Virus record (IMG/VR): IMGVR_UViG_3300046001_006965
Span: 18,970 to 82,969 of that record
Length of the DNA stretch: 64,000 nt
Source: a virus
Reading direction: 5' to 3' (one strand)
Part shown: one piece after another, positions 18,845-51,731 of the stretch
Numbering within the stretch: position 1 is the first letter of the stretch
Layout of the letters: each line of letters opens with the position of its first letter
Notes under the pieces: generated by a model
Told to the model about the DNA's origin: nothing
The model's input: the letters and a program-made list of their open reading frames with translations, nothing else
Database searches by the model: none
Program-made: the position numbers and the translations under genes

Positions 18845-19585
18845 CTAAAAAGGTGTTTTATTAAAATTAATTTTCATACCGTTACTCGCCACGGTGACGT
18901 TTTTTCCTGTGAGTTCTGCCACTTCTTTTTGAAATTGTTTTTCATCTGAATTGCTGTCTGAAAGATGTATCAAAACGATGTTGTTGACTTTCGTTAGATC
19001 ATTGGCAGCCAACATATCCTTGCAGTTGGCCAGCGAGAAATGAGATCTTAAAATCCGGTTTCTCAAAAATTCCTTTCCAGAATCAGCTCCAAACTTTCTG
19101 TCGATGATTTCCTTTGAGAAATTGGCTTCGATAATGATATTATTCAATCCCTTGAAAGTATATTCACAATAGTAGGTATCGGTCAGGAAAAGCACCTTTC
19201 CACAATCAGGATGCTCGATCAAGAACCCCAAAGGTTCCGCTGCATCGTGTTTCACATCGAAAGCCATTACCTTGAAGTTTCCAATTTGTACCGTTTGTCT
19301 GGGTTTGATTGCCGTGGCTCTTGGAAGTGAAAAAACAAAGCGTTTTTCCAATGTTCCGGCAGAAGCATACATATCAATTCCCAACTTTATCACATCATAA
19401 ATGGCTTTGGAGTGGTCAAAGTGTTCGTGTGTACAAAGACAACCAACCACTTTTGACAAATCAAAATTCAAGGCCTGTTTTATGTCCTTGATGTTTACAC
19501 CACACTCGATAAGCAAAGCCTCATTCTCGTTTCCAAGAATGTAGGCATTACCCTTTGAGCCAGTTCCTATTATGTTAAGATTCAT
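18845..19585 (-). CDS. Metallo-beta-lactamase-fold nuclease
   Basis: GSKGN, THEHFDH, HDAAEP, TDT, IEAN, HLS. Confidence 0.9.
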   Translation of the reverse strand: MNLNIIGTGSKGNAYILGNENEALLIECGVNIKDIKQALNFDLSKVVGCLCTHEHFDHSKAIYDVIKLGIDMYASAGTLEKRFVFSLPRATAIKPRQTVQIGNFKVMAFDVKHDAAEPLGFLIEHPDCGKVLFLTDTYYCEYTFKGLNNIIIEANFSKEIIDRKFGADSGKEFLRNRILRSHFSLANCKDMLAANDLTKVNNIVLIHLSDSNSDEKQFQKEVAELTGKNVTVASNGMKINFNKTPF

Positions 19586-46344: not shown

Positions 46345-46782
46345 ATGGCACTGAAAAAACTACAAGAAAAGGAGTTTGCAAAATCACTATTTATTGGTGG
46401 TGGGATTACCCAGAAGGAAATTGCTTCTCGTGTTTCTGTGACCGAAAAAACGCTTACAAATTGGATTAAAATAGGCAAATGGGATAGTCTTAAAAAATCA
46501 TTGCTTACTACAAAGCAGGCCCAGTTATCATTTTTATATGACCAACTAGACTTTTTAAACACTGATATTTCAATTCGAGATTATAAAGTGGCTGTTGGTA
46601 AAGAGGCCGATACCATTATTAAATTAACGGCCGCCATAAACCGATTGGAAACCGAAACCTCCATTGGTGACACCGTGGAAGTCGCTCGACACTTTATCGA
46701 GTTTGTACGTCCGCAAGATTTAGAACTTGCCAAAACTATCACGAATCTATTTGATGTCTTCATAACTGCAAAAATGAAATAA
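46345..46782 (+). CDS. Terminase small subunit-like (DUF1804-like HTH)
   Basis: TQKEIASRVSVTEKTLTNWI; coupled to TerL. Confidence 0.75.
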   Translation: MALKKLQEKEFAKSLFIGGGITQKEIASRVSVTEKTLTNWIKIGKWDSLKKSLLTTKQAQLSFLYDQLDFLNTDISIRDYKVAVGKEADTIIKLTAAINRLETETSIGDTVEVARHFIEFVRPQDLELAKTITNLFDVFITAKMK

Positions 46783-48314
46783 TGGCAAGTAGCAAAGCGG
46801 AGGATAAGAAATACTACGAATTATGGCAACAGTTTCGGGACAACACCCGGAAAGCCACACCTATTGATTTAAAGGAAAGTACCGTTGACAAACAAAACCG
46901 TATTGCCAAACTCGAAAAGTCACCGGAGGCGTGGTTTAAATACTATTTCCCTAACTTTTATACATCGGAACCGGCACCATTTCACATTAAGGCAACCAAA
47001 CGAGTTTTGGCAAATCCTGAATGGTATGAGGTGCGCTCCTGGTCTCGTGAGTTTTCAAAGTCCGGGCGTACAATGATGGAGGTGCTTTTGTTGGCAATGA
47101 CTGGCAAAAAGAAAAATATATTAATGGTATCGTCAACCTATGACAATGCCGAGCGTTTACTCTTACCATACAAAGTAATCTTGGAGTGCAACAATAGAAT
47201 TATAAACGACTACGGAGCACAGGAAAGCCTTGGCAGTTGGGAAGCGGGCGAGTTCGTAACCAAAAAAGGAGTTTCATTCCGCGCGCTTGGTTCTGGACAG
47301 TCTCCCCGTGGAACCCGTAAAGACGAGGTACGTCCTGATTGCATATTAATCGATGATATTGATACCGATGAAGAGTGCCGAAATGCACAACGCATCAAGG
47401 ACAAAATCAAATGGATTGAGGAAGCATTATACGGAACGCGCTCCCTTTCAAATCCTTTGTTGTGGATAGCTTGTGGAAACATCATTGCCAAATATTGCTG
47501 TATTACTGAAATGGCCAAGAAAGCCGATATCCACGAAATTATAAATATTCGTGACAAAAACGGAGTTTCAAACTGGCCCGCTAAAAATACTGAAGCTTTA
47601 ATTGACCGAGCCCTTTCCAAGATTTCTTGGAGCGCACAACAAAAGGAATATTACAACAATCCGGTGAGTGATGGTGACGTATTCGAAAAGATAAAATACG
47701 ACAAATGTCCACCGTTAAAATCTTGCGACAATGTGTTGGTTTATGCTGACCCTTCGACCTCGAATAAAGACCGTGGCGTTAATAAACAAGCCTCTTATAA
47801 ATCGGTGGGCGTTATTGGTAAAAAGGGATTGAAATACTATTTATATAAAGTTTGGATTAAGCAAACCAATAACTCAAAATTTGTGAGTTACTTGTATGAG
47901 GCCTACAACTATATGGTACTGCACGAGGTCGATGTGAAGCGTATTTATATCGAGAACAACTCATTGCAGGCTCCACACTATGAGCAAGTAATTCAACCCG
48001 AAATTAAAAAGCAAGGCGGTGGACTTATTCACTTGCCTATTACCGAAGACCAACGTAAAAAGTCGGACAAATTTGAACGTATCGAAGGAACCTTGGAACC
48101 AAAGAACCGATTGGGAAATCTAATTTTCAACATTGCCGAAAAGAATGACCCTGATATGAAAGTTATGGAGGATCAAATGACGGCCGTTTCAAAAAATGCA
48201 AAAATGATGGACGGCCCCGATATGTTGGAAGGTGGCGTTTGGATTTTAGAAAACAAGACCGTACAAATGGAAGGCGGGTACTCTTATGGCTCAGTTAATA
48301 ATAGGAAGTTTTAA
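46782..48314 (+). CDS. terL: Terminase large subunit (Mu-like)
   Basis: SREFSKS, QSPRG, ILIDD, YADPS, DGPD. Confidence 0.88.
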   Translation: MASSKAEDKKYYELWQQFRDNTRKATPIDLKESTVDKQNRIAKLEKSPEAWFKYYFPNFYTSEPAPFHIKATKRVLANPEWYEVRSWSREFSKSGRTMMEVLLLAMTGKKKNILMVSSTYDNAERLLLPYKVILECNNRIINDYGAQESLGSWEAGEFVTKKGVSFRALGSGQSPRGTRKDEVRPDCILIDDIDTDEECRNAQRIKDKIKWIEEALYGTRSLSNPLLWIACGNIIAKYCCITEMAKKADIHEIINIRDKNGVSNWPAKNTEALIDRALSKISWSAQQKEYYNNPVSDGDVFEKIKYDKCPPLKSCDNVLVYADPSTSNKDRGVNKQASYKSVGVIGKKGLKYYLYKVWIKQTNNSKFVSYLYEAYNYMVLHEVDVKRIYIENNSLQAPHYEQVIQPEIKKQGGGLIHLPITEDQRKKSDKFERIEGTLEPKNRLGNLIFNIAEKNDPDMKVMEDQMTAVSKNAKMMDGPDMLEGGVWILENKTVQMEGGYSYGSVNNRKF

Positions 48315-48666: not shown

Positions 48667-49095
48667 ATGTTTTTATCAAAATCAGATTTAGGAAGCGCCA
48701 TTTATGGCTATCAAGTTGACCAAATAACCGAGGGCAAGGATGATTTAGTATTGCAGGCCATTGGAGCAGCTATTGAGGAAGTGGGTGGCTATTTAAAAGG
48801 CGCGAGCTTGTATGATGTCACCGCTATTTTTGCCGCGGCAGGAGCAAACAGAAATGCGTTAATTGTAACGCATACCGTTACCGTTGCCAAATGGTATCTC
48901 GTAGAGTTATGCAATGCCGACATCATTTATGAGCAGGCTAAAGAACGATATGACCGCGCTGTAGCTTGGCTCACTAAACTATCCAAAGGAACGGTTGTCG
49001 TTGGCTCTTTGCCAGTGGTTCCCATTGCAACTGGACAAACTGAAACTGACACTTTTGGCTATGGCTCAAGACCTAAATTTAATCACGATATATAA
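48667..49095 (+). CDS. Mu gp36-like head-tail adaptor (DUF1320)
   Basis: AIEEVGGYL, ERYDRAVAWL. Confidence 0.8.
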   Translation: MFLSKSDLGSAIYGYQVDQITEGKDDLVLQAIGAAIEEVGGYLKGASLYDVTAIFAAAGANRNALIVTHTVTVAKWYLVELCNADIIYEQAKERYDRAVAWLTKLSKGTVVVGSLPVVPIATGQTETDTFGYGSRPKFNHDI

Positions 49096-50309
49096 TGGCA
49101 GCAGCAGCAAAAAAAGCCGCTCCGGTAAAGAAAACCGCAGCACTCGACAATAAGTTAGTCAATCAAATTTTAGCCAAATCAATGAGCCGGGTTCGTCAGG
49201 ATGTGGCGAGTTGGAACACGGCTTTGACTATGGCCAGAAAAGCCGAGAAACCAAAGCGGTTTTTGTTGTATAATTTATACGATGAAATTTCCATTGATGG
49301 CCTTTTAAAATCTCAATTAGGCAATCGAAACCTTAAATCATTGTCAACCAGTTTTATCATATCTGACAAAAGTGGGAATACAAATGAAGATGCCACGGCT
49401 TTGCTTCAGGATAAAATATGGGTTAATGAAATTAACAAAGCGATCCTTGGATCTATCACGCACGGACATTCTGCAATAGAGTTATCCTGGATAGGAGCCG
49501 GAGAAACTCAAGACTTGAATTGTGATTTATTAGACAGACAAAATATTGAGCCTCGTGACGGCTTGTTTTATCCTGATTATAATGCTGACAAAGCAACCGC
49601 GTACCGTTTGATGCCTGAGTTTGGCACTTGGATTTTAGAGTTTGGAGACCCTAAAAATTTAGGACTTTTAAACAGTGCAGTGCCTCACGTTTTATTCAAA
49701 CGATTTGCACAAAGTTGTTGGTCTGAACTTTGCGAAATCGCGGGAATCCCTCCAAGGGTTATGAAAACAGATACCCAAAACGCGGCAATGTTACGACGTG
49801 CAGAGCGTATGATGAAAGATATGGGTGCAGCCGCTTGGTTCATTATTGACGAAAGTGAAAAATTTGAGTGGGCGCAAGCCTCGAATGCTAACGGTGATGT
49901 GTACCAAAAGTTAATGACTTTTTGCAATAACGAAATATCGATGCTAGTTTCGGGTGCTGTAATGGGTCAGGATACTGTGAACGGATCTAACTCGAAAGAG
50001 AAAACAATGCAGGATACTTTGCAAACATTGGTAGACTCTGATTTATCATTGATTGAGCAATATTGGAACTCTAAAGTTATCCCGGCTTTAATCAATATCG
50101 GGGTTTTGAGTGGCGAATGCGTTTTCTCTTATCCCGAAACGGAGGACATTGCTCAATTGTGGACAATGACAAAAGATACTTTTCAATACTTTGAAGTAGA
50201 CACAGAGTGGATAAAAACCACTTTTGGAGTTCAGGTTACTGGGCCAAAAATACAACCTGTGGCAGCACCACCGGCAAAGCTTTCACTTGATGCGGGTTTT
50301 TTCGACTAA
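49095..50309 (+). CDS. Portal protein (DUF935, Mu gp29-like)
   Basis: WSELCEIAGIP, CNNEISMLVSG; gene order. Confidence 0.85.
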   Translation: MAAAAKKAAPVKKTAALDNKLVNQILAKSMSRVRQDVASWNTALTMARKAEKPKRFLLYNLYDEISIDGLLKSQLGNRNLKSLSTSFIISDKSGNTNEDATALLQDKIWVNEINKAILGSITHGHSAIELSWIGAGETQDLNCDLLDRQNIEPRDGLFYPDYNADKATAYRLMPEFGTWILEFGDPKNLGLLNSAVPHVLFKRFAQSCWSELCEIAGIPPRVMKTDTQNAAMLRRAERMMKDMGAAAWFIIDESEKFEWAQASNANGDVYQKLMTFCNNEISMLVSGAVMGQDTVNGSNSKEKTMQDTLQTLVDSDLSLIEQYWNSKVIPALINIGVLSGECVFSYPETEDIAQLWTMTKDTFQYFEVDTEWIKTTFGVQVTGPKIQPVAAPPAKLSLDAGFFD

Positions 50310-50342
50310 GCCCCAATTATTTTAAGGAATATTTTGGGGCTT
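50294..50342 (+). promoter_or_regulatory. Predicted -1 programmed ribosomal frameshift signal
   Basis: G_GGT_TTT_TTC followed by hairpin AAGCCCCAA...TTGGGGCTT. Confidence 0.65.
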
Positions 50343-51193
50343 TGAATAGCCAACTTTCGTTTTTGTACGATTGTGATTGTGACGATTGCAAAACAAAGGC
50401 GCACACATTGGCCATTGGCAAAAGCAAAATTAAACCGCTTTTAACTGCCGTTGAAAAGGCATTTAAACAATTGCACACCAAAGGCAGTTACAAGCCACAA
50501 GATTTGGCAAAAACAGCCGAGTACAAAAATTTGATTACAGGAACGAGCACAATTTTAAACGGTGCAATTGCCGACAATGATATTCCTGAAGCAATGTTCA
50601 ACTCATTGAAAGAGGACGTGTTTGTATTTTCGGGATTGAAAACTCACGCACAATTGGCTGAAGCTTCGAAATTATTATTGACTCCTGAAGGAAAAATAAA
50701 ATCCTTTTCGATATTCTCAAATGACGTGCAAAGCATCAAAGAGAACTATAATCAAAAGTATCTGGATGCCGAGTATCAATTTGCAGTATCCAGTGCGCAA
50801 TCGGCAGGAAATTGGGCGGGTTTAACGACTGATTATGATTTGCAGTATAGAACGGCGGGCGATGACCGCGTTCGCGACTCACACGACAAATTAAGAGATA
50901 CGACACTTCCACAGGATGACGCGTTTTGGATTTCGTATTACCCACCAAACGGTTGGCGTTGTCGCTGTACCGCTGTCCAAGTCCGAAAAGGCAAGTATGA
51001 TGTAAGCGATAGCAAAAAGGCAATTACTGAAGGCGAAAAAGCAACTACTCAAATTGATAAAAATGGGCAAAACAAACTGGCGATTTTTCGTTTTAATCCT
51101 GGCATTCAAAAAGTGGTATTTCCGCCGTCGCATCCGTATACTAAGATTGCGGGCGCGAAGGAAGTCAGAAAGATATTGAAAGATGGAAATTAA
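50342..51193 (+). CDS. MuF / SPP1 gp7-like head morphogenesis protein
   Basis: LQYRTAGDDRVRDSH, YPPNGWRCRC, FRFNPG; only a TTG start before the conserved region. Confidence 0.9.
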   Translation: MNSQLSFLYDCDCDDCKTKAHTLAIGKSKIKPLLTAVEKAFKQLHTKGSYKPQDLAKTAEYKNLITGTSTILNGAIADNDIPEAMFNSLKEDVFVFSGLKTHAQLAEASKLLLTPEGKIKSFSIFSNDVQSIKENYNQKYLDAEYQFAVSSAQSAGNWAGLTTDYDLQYRTAGDDRVRDSHDKLRDTTLPQDDAFWISYYPPNGWRCRCTAVQVRKGKYDVSDSKKAITEGEKATTQIDKNGQNKLAIFRFNPGIQKVVFPPSHPYTKIAGAKEVRKILKDGN

Positions 51194-51731
51194 CGAACTC
51201 GAAAAAAAGATTACTGCAGACTTAGCGGTTGAGCTTGCTGACGAGTTTGACCGAAACTTTGAGCGTAAAGCCTTTTTTACTGAGAAATGGCCGTCAACTA
51301 AAATCAATAATGCTCGTGGTTCTGTGTTGAACCGCTCCGGGAACCTGCGACGCTCGATTAAATATTCCGTGAGGGAAAATATGATTTCGTTTAGCAGTTC
51401 GCTGCCGTATGCTTCAATTCATAATGAAGGTGGCGAGATAACAGTCACGGCTCAAATGAAAAAATACTTTTGGGCAATGTACTACAGAGCAATGGGTGGC
51501 GTCACGACCAAAAAAGACGGTGGCGAAAGTTCCAGTAAGAAAAATGTAAAGCTAACCGGAGAGGCGGCCAAGTGGAGAGGAATGGCTTTAATGAAAATAG
51601 GCCAAAAAATAAAAGTCGAAAAGAGGCAAATGGTGGGAGACCATCCACAGGTTGCAAAACTAGTAAAAGGCGTTATTGACGACAATATGGAAATCTTTAA
51701 CCAAGAGTTAATTAAAAAATTCAAAAGATGA
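51183..51731 (+). CDS. Virion morphogenesis protein (Mu gpG-like)
   Basis: SGNLRRSI, YASIHNEGG, KRQMVG. Confidence 0.82.
   Translation: MEINELEKKITADLAVELADEFDRNFERKAFFTEKWPSTKINNARGSVLNRSGNLRRSIKYSVRENMISFSSSLPYASIHNEGGEITVTAQMKKYFWAMYYRAMGGVTTKKDGGESSSKKNVKLTGEAAKWRGMALMKIGQKIKVEKRQMVGDHPQVAKLVKGVIDDNMEIFNQELIKKFKR

Follow-up and report, generated by a model that had tools for sequence, protein, structure and literature searches.

The portal-MuF junction of the window

The DNA analysed here is a stretch of 64,000 nucleotides (nt) from the IMG/VR virus record IMGVR_UViG_3300046001_006965 (positions 18,970 to 82,969 of that record), hereafter the window, in which a Mu-type head module occupies 46.8-52.2 kb on the + strand. 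Within this module a portal gene is followed directly by a gene of the MuF family, and the subject of this report is the junction between the two, at which a programmed -1 ribosomal frameshift very probably joins MuF to the end of the portal protein. The element itself is a Mu-like prophage, probably of a Flavobacterium-like Bacteroidota host. The junction comprises the following features:

49095-50309, + strand: portal gene, Mu gp29-like, 404 amino acids (aa), the zero-frame product (open reading frame (ORF), PF06074, phrog_113 portal)
50288-50290, + strand: TGA in the -1 frame (-1 translation)
50294-50300, + strand: overlapping G_GGT_TTT heptamer, probably incidental (sequence)
50297-50303, + strand: slippery heptamer T_TTT_TTC (U_UUU_UUC) in the portal frame (sequence)
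50304-50309, + strand: spacer between heptamer and G+C stem core, comprising the last portal codon, GAC, and TAA (sequence)
50308-50342, + strand: predicted stimulatory hairpin, starting 4-6 nt past the heptamer (fold and covariance model)
50342-50344, + strand: TTG within the 3' hairpin arm, the one canonical codon at which a free MuF might start
50303-51193, + strand: predicted -1 portion of the trans-frame protein (296 codons and a stop), made up of the linker and MuF
to 51193, + strand, -1 frame: MuF ORF directly 3' of the portal (PF04233, phrog_23416/19194/220)

The portal is a member of Portal_Mu (PF06074/DUF935; E 2.3e-70; 238 bits against a cut-off of 23.9), and the match aligns portal residues 59-379 with profile positions 1-336 of 336, that is, with the full domain. 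The downstream ORF belongs to Phage_Mu_F (PF04233, the family of SPP1 gp7; 42.1 bits against a cut-off of 29.6), the match spanning residues 154-228 of the 300-aa -1 frame translation, and its matches to phrog_220 and phrog_324 are to minor head or head morphogenesis proteins. The two domains do not lie in one uninterrupted frame, since the TAA at 50307-50309 and a -1 offset stand between them. The anatomy of the site can be read directly from the DNA: the portal ends in GCG GGT TTT TTC GAC TAA, and readthrough of the TAA reaches a TGA after 11 codons. The -1 frame is open from 50291 to its stop at 51191-51193 and reads ..FFRLSPNYFKEYFGALNSQ.. / ..FFRLSPNYFKEYFGALNSQLSFLYDCDCDDCK.., and because the -1 frame contains a TGA at 50288-50290, any shift into the MuF frame must fall within 50291-50309. 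A simultaneous slip at 50297-50303 would yield a fusion of 403 portal residues and 296 -1-frame residues, 699 aa in all.

The stem of the predicted hairpin is formed by AAGCCCCAA (50308-50316), which pairs with TTGGGGCTT (50334-50342), with an inner extension TATT/AATA and a G+C core, GCCCCAA/TTGGGGC, at 50310-50340; GAATAGCC follows the stem. The folding energy of 50289-50360 computed with RNAfold is -22.4 kcal/mol (z = -3.37), a value equalled by none of 200 shuffles, and R1, a covariance model described below, matches the window at 50297-50344. We considered whether the hairpin is an intrinsic terminator and ruled this out, since it has no T tail and its stem is not listed by a terminator scan. 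The scan reports only a weaker alternative pairing, GGGTT...AGCCC (50294-50313), which overlaps the slippery site and depends on the GGT codon, a codon absent from most relatives. A search of Rfam gave no match at E up to 1 within 49800-50800, and no upstream Shine-Dalgarno-like stimulator is evident at the site of the window. No RNA data set is listed as containing 49095-51193; two lake-water metagenome runs contain the whole stretch and may be where it came from, and five further metagenome runs contain 6-11% of its words.

An earlier note on this stretch, made from its letters alone, had described the portal end with two overlapping heptamers, the stem 50308-16/50334-42 with its TATT/AATA extension, the -1 frame open into MuF, the TTG in the 3' arm of the hairpin as the only upstream start for MuF and the TGA met after 11 codons of readthrough, and all of these are present as it described them. 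Its prediction that a -1 frameshift fuses the portal to MuF in a product of about 700 aa gains support from the comparison of related junctions that follows.

The junction in relatives and distant lineages

A protein search with the portal yielded 26 viral contigs, together with 13 genome contigs that belong to Flavobacterium species, a Chitinophagaceae metagenome-assembled genome (MAG) and Belliella, and a search of the viral collection with an alignment of ten portals yielded 306 relatives, of which the best 80 were kept. We pooled 110 sources (the window, L001-L039 and L054-L123), L045-L053 having been excluded as contigs already included. After removal of 23 duplicate junctions, of L033, whose locus ends before MuF, and of L066, whose portal frame runs off the locus, 85 distinct junctions remained: 84 in which portal and MuF are split and one in-frame fusion (L039). 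Portal identity to the window ranges from 46 to 100% across the surveyed relatives, and single-linkage clustering of the 110 portals gives 27 groups at 70% identity and 10 at 60%.

MuF lies at a -1 offset from the portal in 83 of the 84 distinct split junctions. The exception, L016, an old metagenome contig which has the sole +1 offset, is identical at the junction to L018 and differs from it by one base in a G-run 80 nt downstream. Breaks of frame inside MuF are seen in three metagenome or MAG contigs, at ~1375 in L016 (at the G-run), at ~4490 in L020 and at ~4513-4565 in L036, and are probably sequencing errors.

Counting an in-frame X_XXY_YYZ in the final 36 nt of the portal as a slippery heptamer, we find one in 83 of the 84 split junctions: 74 have TTTTTTC, six TTTTTTT and three AAATTTT. 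The rule extends to the base in front of the two slipping codons. With a T-run the preceding codon ends in T in 80 of 80 cases (GAT, GGT, AGT, AAT, CCT, TAT, CGT and TTT), and the amino acid that it encodes varies (Asp, Gly, Ser, Asn, Pro, Tyr, Arg and Phe); with AAT it ends in A in three of three (GCA and GGA). The AAATTTT junctions encode Asn-Phe (NF), not Phe-Phe (FF), and the conserved feature is therefore the nucleotide rule, not a Phe-Phe motif. All three heptamers (U_UUU_UUC, U_UUU_UUU and A_AAU_UUU) fall into the H_HH.U_UU.Y class, which is among the most efficient classes of -1 motif in E. coli (Sharma et al. 2014, PMC4066793). Of the two heptamers named in the earlier note, U_UUU_UUC is thus the conserved one; G_GGU_UUU, the GGT of which precedes the slip in only 20 of 83 relatives, is not conserved, and we dropped it as a candidate second functional heptamer. 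The base immediately after the heptamer is G in 71 of 83 junctions, and the portal stop lies 3 nt past the heptamer in most. By a simple positional count, conservation is 89-100% within the heptamer, 86-95% in the stop and the first bases of the stem, and 34-76% in the 15 bases upstream; variation at synonymous sites around the slip site appears, on this comparison, to be suppressed.

A stem at fixed spacing accompanies the heptamer. In 83 junctions the first paired base lies 6 nt past the heptamer in 46, 5 nt in 21, 4 nt in 14 and 3 nt in two; the uninterrupted stem measures 6-12 base pairs, and its 5' arm is represented by 25 different 7-mers. Stems at the same place differ in sequence, as GCCCCAAA/UUUGGGGC, GCCUCCC../..GGGGGGC and GGGCUGAAAA/UUUUCAGCCC, and likewise GAGCUGGCA/UGUCAGUUC, GCCACGC/GCGUGGC and GCUCUAAAG/CUUUGGAGC. 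The model R1, built from nine examples of equal length, gives 77 matches in 92 sources, one in each and always at the portal end, 59 of them distinct. Covariation of the stem is seen directly in the alignment of these 59 rows: 97.8% of 405 cells are paired, and five of eight pairs show changes on both sides. Observed values were reached by none of 500 shuffles, and sliding the partner by 1-3 columns lowered the paired fraction to 28-67%. The folding energy of the 60 nt past the heptamer has a median z of -2.39, with z below -2 in 58 of 84 junctions, below -1 in 77 of 84 and above 0 in none. Support for the stem rests on these folding-energy z-scores, on the covariation count and on the fixed spacing, not on the length of the uninterrupted run.

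Downstream of the slip, the N-terminal motif of MuF (YFGAL-like, then ..LYDCxCxDC) begins 5, 6, 8-12, 14, 15 or 16 codons past the slip site; the YFGAL-like pattern was found in 67 junctions, one further match 69 codons past the slip being an outlier, and in the 16 junctions without a match to the pattern the start of MuF homology was used instead. The linker contains a stop in none of 83 junctions, and its changes in length are always of whole codons, so that MuF stays in frame. Between the upstream stop of the -1 frame and the MuF motif there is no ATG, GTG or TTG in 64 of 83 junctions and no ATG in 73 of 83; four relatives (L005, L019, L022 and L030) have no ATG, GTG or TTG within the first 50 codons past the slip. 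The TTG of the window is not conserved, close relatives having TTA or another codon in its place. The kept frame and the missing start codons are direct observations, and what is conserved, as judged from these sequences, is a frame continuous with the portal slip site, not a free-standing MuF gene. An alignment of junctions had been proposed in the earlier note as a check, and within the lineage of the window it revealed neither variable frame offsets nor a conserved ATG for MuF. The conserved Cys-rich motif at the N-terminus of MuF (..LYDCxCxDC..), located just past the linker in the window (50360-50385) and in relatives, might bind metal.

The one in-frame fusion of the pooled set, L039 (a Belliella prophage with 46% portal identity), has a single 846-aa portal-MuF ORF with the collinear junction ..GFF-PQALPKDFGRADCGC... 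It departs from the split form in that CAA replaces the stop and the spacer is one base shorter, and it keeps the T-run and a stem 6 nt downstream; since the difference consists of a lost stop and a shortened spacer, L039 represents a real conversion, not an error in the T-run. Fusions are also known from protein data: phrog_35074 is a single profile of 890 positions that covers both window proteins, and proteins of 696-955 aa with both PF06074 and PF04233 are present in the protein collection. One protein, P0005 (934 aa, from a Logan assembly), has the junction ..DGFFRLRADTHQISPKYYFEAL.., as judged from the protein sequence, exactly as in a -1 trans-frame product, an arrangement that one additional T in the contig would produce; it also has an extension of ~230 aa past MuF with an HEFGH (HExxH-like) motif. 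A second, P0018 (785 aa, JGI), is an apparent fusion of which the portal half turns low-complexity and Arg-rich midway; the likely cause is a break of frame within the portal, from which the -1 frame continues into MuF.

The signal extends to more distant lineages. Two gut scaffolds (L209 and L210; 26-28% portal identity to the window) have T_TTT_TTC GAC TGA followed by a hairpin, with a -1 frame that reads FFRLSP. For the lineage of the hankyphages we assembled Bacteroides phage p00 (BK010646), jmh47_hp, BKO1-TP4 and 80 IMG/VR loci, which gave 43 distinct junctions. An in-frame T_TTT_TTC followed by G, with MuF at a -1 offset, is present in 43 of 43, and in 41 of 43 a stem, mostly GCCCCG/CGGGGC, begins 6 nt past the heptamer; the zero-frame stop follows the heptamer at 39 nt. 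No ATG, GTG or TTG precedes the conserved LY motif in 10 of 43, and the ATG annotated as the MuF start of the hankyphage is missing in relatives of 63-65% identity. Two GenBank records of the same hankyphage gene (in jmh47_hp, L204, and p00, L205) differ over the MuF start (3326 against 3302, locus coordinates), a disagreement that shows the start to be uncertain.

For the lineage of the Porphyromonas gingivalis phages we assembled L207, annotated as an 853-aa 'portal', and 78 IMG/VR loci, which gave 58 distinct junctions, and all 58 are in-frame portal-MuF fusions. The heptamer is nonetheless retained: 52 of the 58 have TTTTTTC, two CCCTTTT, one AAATTTC (possibly by chance) and three none, and 53 of the 55 with a heptamer have a GC-rich stem from +7, the stems covarying. 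The -1 frame stops after 16-36 codons in 53 of 55, and a shift in these fusions would, on this arrangement, yield a short portal that lacks MuF. That the signal is kept whichever product results is the strongest argument that two forms of the portal are selected for.

Among isolated phages, none with the junction type of the window is closer than 29% portal identity. In Winogradskyella phage Peternella_1 (NC_062754; L208, 3640-3800), the portal end carries runs of A10 and A7 (in-frame A_AAA_AAA), MuF lies at a -1 offset in a -1 frame that opens exactly at the A-run, and MuF homology begins upstream of the annotated ATG. This may be an A-run version of the same recoding.

Interpretation and alternatives

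The reading that we favour, and hold to be very probable, is that a programmed -1 ribosomal frameshift makes two proteins in the window element, the 404-aa portal and the 699-aa portal-MuF. By default, most ribosomes would read GGT TTT TTC GAC and terminate at the TAA, releasing the 404-aa portal. A fraction would pause on the hairpin 4-6 nt downstream, with tRNA-Phe occupying both the P site (on UUU) and the A site (on UUC), slip back by one base onto UUU UUU and go on to read CGA CUA AGC CCC; the product would read ...FF-RLSPNYFKEYFGAL..., that is, it would be a 699-aa portal with MuF at its C-terminus. Stimulation would come from the stem alone. Since MuF of related phages usually lacks a start codon of its own, the shift would be the main or only route to MuF. 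The fusion would be a minority product that enters virions, and the efficiency of the shift would determine the number of portal subunits, out of twelve, that bear MuF, so that recoding would set the MuF copy number; by analogy with SPP1 gp7, the fusion would sit at the portal with MuF facing the interior of the capsid.

Beyond the window, we lean, with less confidence, towards the view that the portal-MuF boundary of Bacteroidota Mu-like phages is one ancient recoding switch that works both ways. Where the genes are split, the shift would make the fusion and MuF would have no free product; where they are fused, the shift would make a MuF-less portal. Every phage would mix two isoforms in its twelve-subunit portal, with the efficiency setting the number of MuF domains inside the capsid. 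The hosts to which this would apply include Flavobacterium, Chitinophagaceae, Bacteroides (including that of the widespread gut hankyphage) and Porphyromonas gingivalis.

A number of observations weigh against recoding at this junction. One split junction, L075, has no canonical heptamer, reading CTTTTTA in its place. The rules by which the heptamers are judged come from measurements in E. coli, not in Bacteroidia. Conservation near the slip is partly forced by the overlap of frames: the stop and the stem arm encode R-L-S-P in the -1 frame, and for this reason conservation of the peptide at that place does not count as independent support. Pairing is favoured in the R1 alignment, which is fitted to the structure of the model; R1 also missed the most divergent stems, and it gave no match in 15 of 92 sources. 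The longest uninterrupted run of pairs, a weak statistic, was reached by 468 of 4150 mononucleotide shuffles in the Flavobacterium-type set (50 shuffles per junction), and in the hankyphage-type set the same statistic was reached by 705 of 2150. Some ATG, GTG or TTG is present ahead of the MuF motif in 19 of 83 relatives, and the TTG of the window at 50342, 33 nt past the portal stop, could in principle allow reinitiation of a free MuF. Finally, the Winoviridae isolates lotta8-2, FPSV-S1 and fF4 have separate MuF genes with an ATG or GTG of their own and lack the signal; the arrangement thus belongs to certain lineages, and a portal of this type does not require it.

The last three of these observations would be accounted for if portal and MuF were two ordinary genes, with MuF made only as a free protein by reinitiation or coupling at the TTG, or from non-canonical starts in relatives, and with the hairpin serving as an mRNA-stability or attenuating element and the T-run kept for a C-terminal Phe-Phe of the portal. 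The proximity of the TTG to the portal stop, the candidate starts in the minority of relatives, the ATG of hankyphage p00, which overlaps the portal stop, and the expression of MuF from its own ATG or GTG in distant isolates all fit this account. We nevertheless consider it improbable. Most relatives have no canonical start at all and the TTG is not conserved; the -1 offset persists across at least 10 linker lengths; the synonymous positions of the heptamer and the third base that precedes it obey X_XXY_YYZ and not the amino acid, A_AAU_UUU encoding Asn-Phe; the stem has no T tail and is passed over by the terminator scan; and heptamer and stem persist inside in-frame fusions, in which reinitiation is needless.

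A second alternative keeps the fusion and moves the slip to transcription: RNA polymerase would add or drop a U in the T6 run, and some mRNAs would encode an in-frame portal-MuF. The site is indeed a homopolymer of six T, extended to 7-9 T in a few relatives, and the junction of P0005, which reads as if the contig had one extra T, and the A10 and A7 runs at the same place in Peternella_1 would fit such slippage. Six T is, however, short for slippage by polymerase. In 83 of 84 junctions the heptamer stands in the same phase to the portal frame, and A_AAU_UUU (three junctions) and C_CCU_UUU (two, Porphyromonas-type) contain runs of only 3-4 bases and yet obey the heptamer rule; a covarying stem at a fixed spacing of 3-6 nt is, moreover, a stimulator of ribosomal type. 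Because the phase is kept and these variants lack a long homopolymer, slippage by polymerase appears unlikely, with very little probability left to it, and we infer that it is the ribosome that slips.

An error of assembly or sequencing in the T-run, or a decaying prophage, such that the true gene is a plain in-frame fusion or is broken, is effectively refuted by the comparative data: homopolymer runs are error-prone and frame breaks occur elsewhere in MuF in some related metagenome contigs (L016, L020 and L036), but 83 of 84 junctions, drawn from independent assemblies that include several Flavobacterium species sequenced as isolates, share run length, stop and -1 offset, and the true fusion, L039, differs in its stop and spacer, not in the length of its T-run.

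Relation to known systems and neighbouring genes

Programmed frameshifting in phage structural genes is textbook knowledge for tail chaperones and for some capsid proteins. What would be new here, on the comparative evidence, is its application within a structural module to the portal/MuF pair, in both polarities. Full-text literature searches, which did not cover the prophage clusters in Supplementary Tables S4-S8 of PMC4066793, the GeneTack clusters of Antonov et al. or S6 Table of PMC12135933, found no description of a portal or portal-MuF frameshift, in agreement with the earlier note, whose author knew of none. In the 2016 review of recoding (Atkins et al., PMC5009743), 'portal' occurs 0 times in the first 290,229 of 429,602 characters. 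The main text of the hankyphage paper (PMC12135933) contains no 'portal', 'frameshift' or 'MuF', and in the P. gingivalis phage paper (PMC10367356) the one use of 'frameshift' concerns spanin ORFs, and 'portal' appears only among genes named as easy to annotate and in the title of a reference.

The closest parallel is the -1 frameshift of the tail assembly chaperones G/GT in lambda and most long-tailed phages (Xu, Hendrix and Duda 2004; PMC7911831, PMC7302621). As in G/GT, a conserved heptamer near the end of an upstream structural ORF would direct a -1 shift that adds a downstream ORF without a start of its own, and one locus would give a short major and a long minor product in a set ratio. 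Unlike in G/GT, the gene pair is portal and MuF and not two chaperone ORFs, the signal includes a covarying hairpin at fixed spacing, and sister lineages reverse the polarity, the fusion being their default product.

A second parallel is the -1 frameshift of E. coli dnaX, from which tau and gamma arise (PMC6771820, PMC1851650). The combination of a heptamer with a downstream stem-loop is shared; and as for gamma, a shift in the Porphyromonas-type, L039 and L041 fusions would end after 16-36 codons and give a short form, whereas the shift in the window would yield the long form. An upstream Shine-Dalgarno-like stimulator is also used by dnaX. Ribosomes of Bacteroidia do not recognise Shine-Dalgarno sequences (PMC10798248), and the junction described here would, given the lack of such pairing, be a clean natural case of hairpin-only -1 stimulation in that phylum.

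Portal and MuF are joined directly, by gene fusion, in Microbacterium phages of subclusters EA3, EA5 and EA8 and of cluster EB (PMC7302621). In these phages, in phrog_35074 and in the P. gingivalis 853-aa 'portal', a single polypeptide carries both domains, ordered as they would be in the frameshift product, and the existence of such single-ORF fusions shows that a covalent portal-MuF is viable. The window differs from them in that a stop and a -1 offset separate the domains, and only recoding could fuse them. In SPP1, a few copies of gp7, a member of the MuF family, are directed into the interior of the procapsid; the protein binds the portal gp6 and has a supporting role when infection starts (PMC6316719). 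The window likewise encodes a MuF-family protein beside the portal; unlike gp7, which is separate and bound non-covalently, MuF would here be linked covalently. Frameshift-extended virion proteins are known from T3/T7 gene 10, Lactobacillus phage A2 and Listeria phages (Atkins et al. 2016, PMC5009743), in which, as proposed here, a minority of the copies of a structural virion protein acquire a C-terminal extension through recoding; in those phages, unlike here, it is major capsid or tail proteins that are extended.

If the frameshift is real, many phages and prophages of Bacteroidota have mis-annotated MuF genes, with invented starts. It would also provide a testable account of how the few copies of a MuF/gp7 protein come to be numbered and positioned at the portal vertex, and it predicts mixed portal dodecamers. 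The matter has relevance for gut and oral communities, since the hankyphage and P. gingivalis phages bear the same signal, and a mass-spectrometry data set of hankyphage virions that could test the idea exists (PMC12135933).

The remaining genes of the head module flank the junction in the order given below; for the first, no Pfam match was obtained at E up to 0.01.

46782-48314, + strand: 510-aa ORF in the usual slot of the large terminase subunit
48667-49095, + strand: gp36-like adaptor (PF07030, Pfam)
51183-51731, + strand: gpG-like virion morphogenesis protein (PF05069, Pfam)

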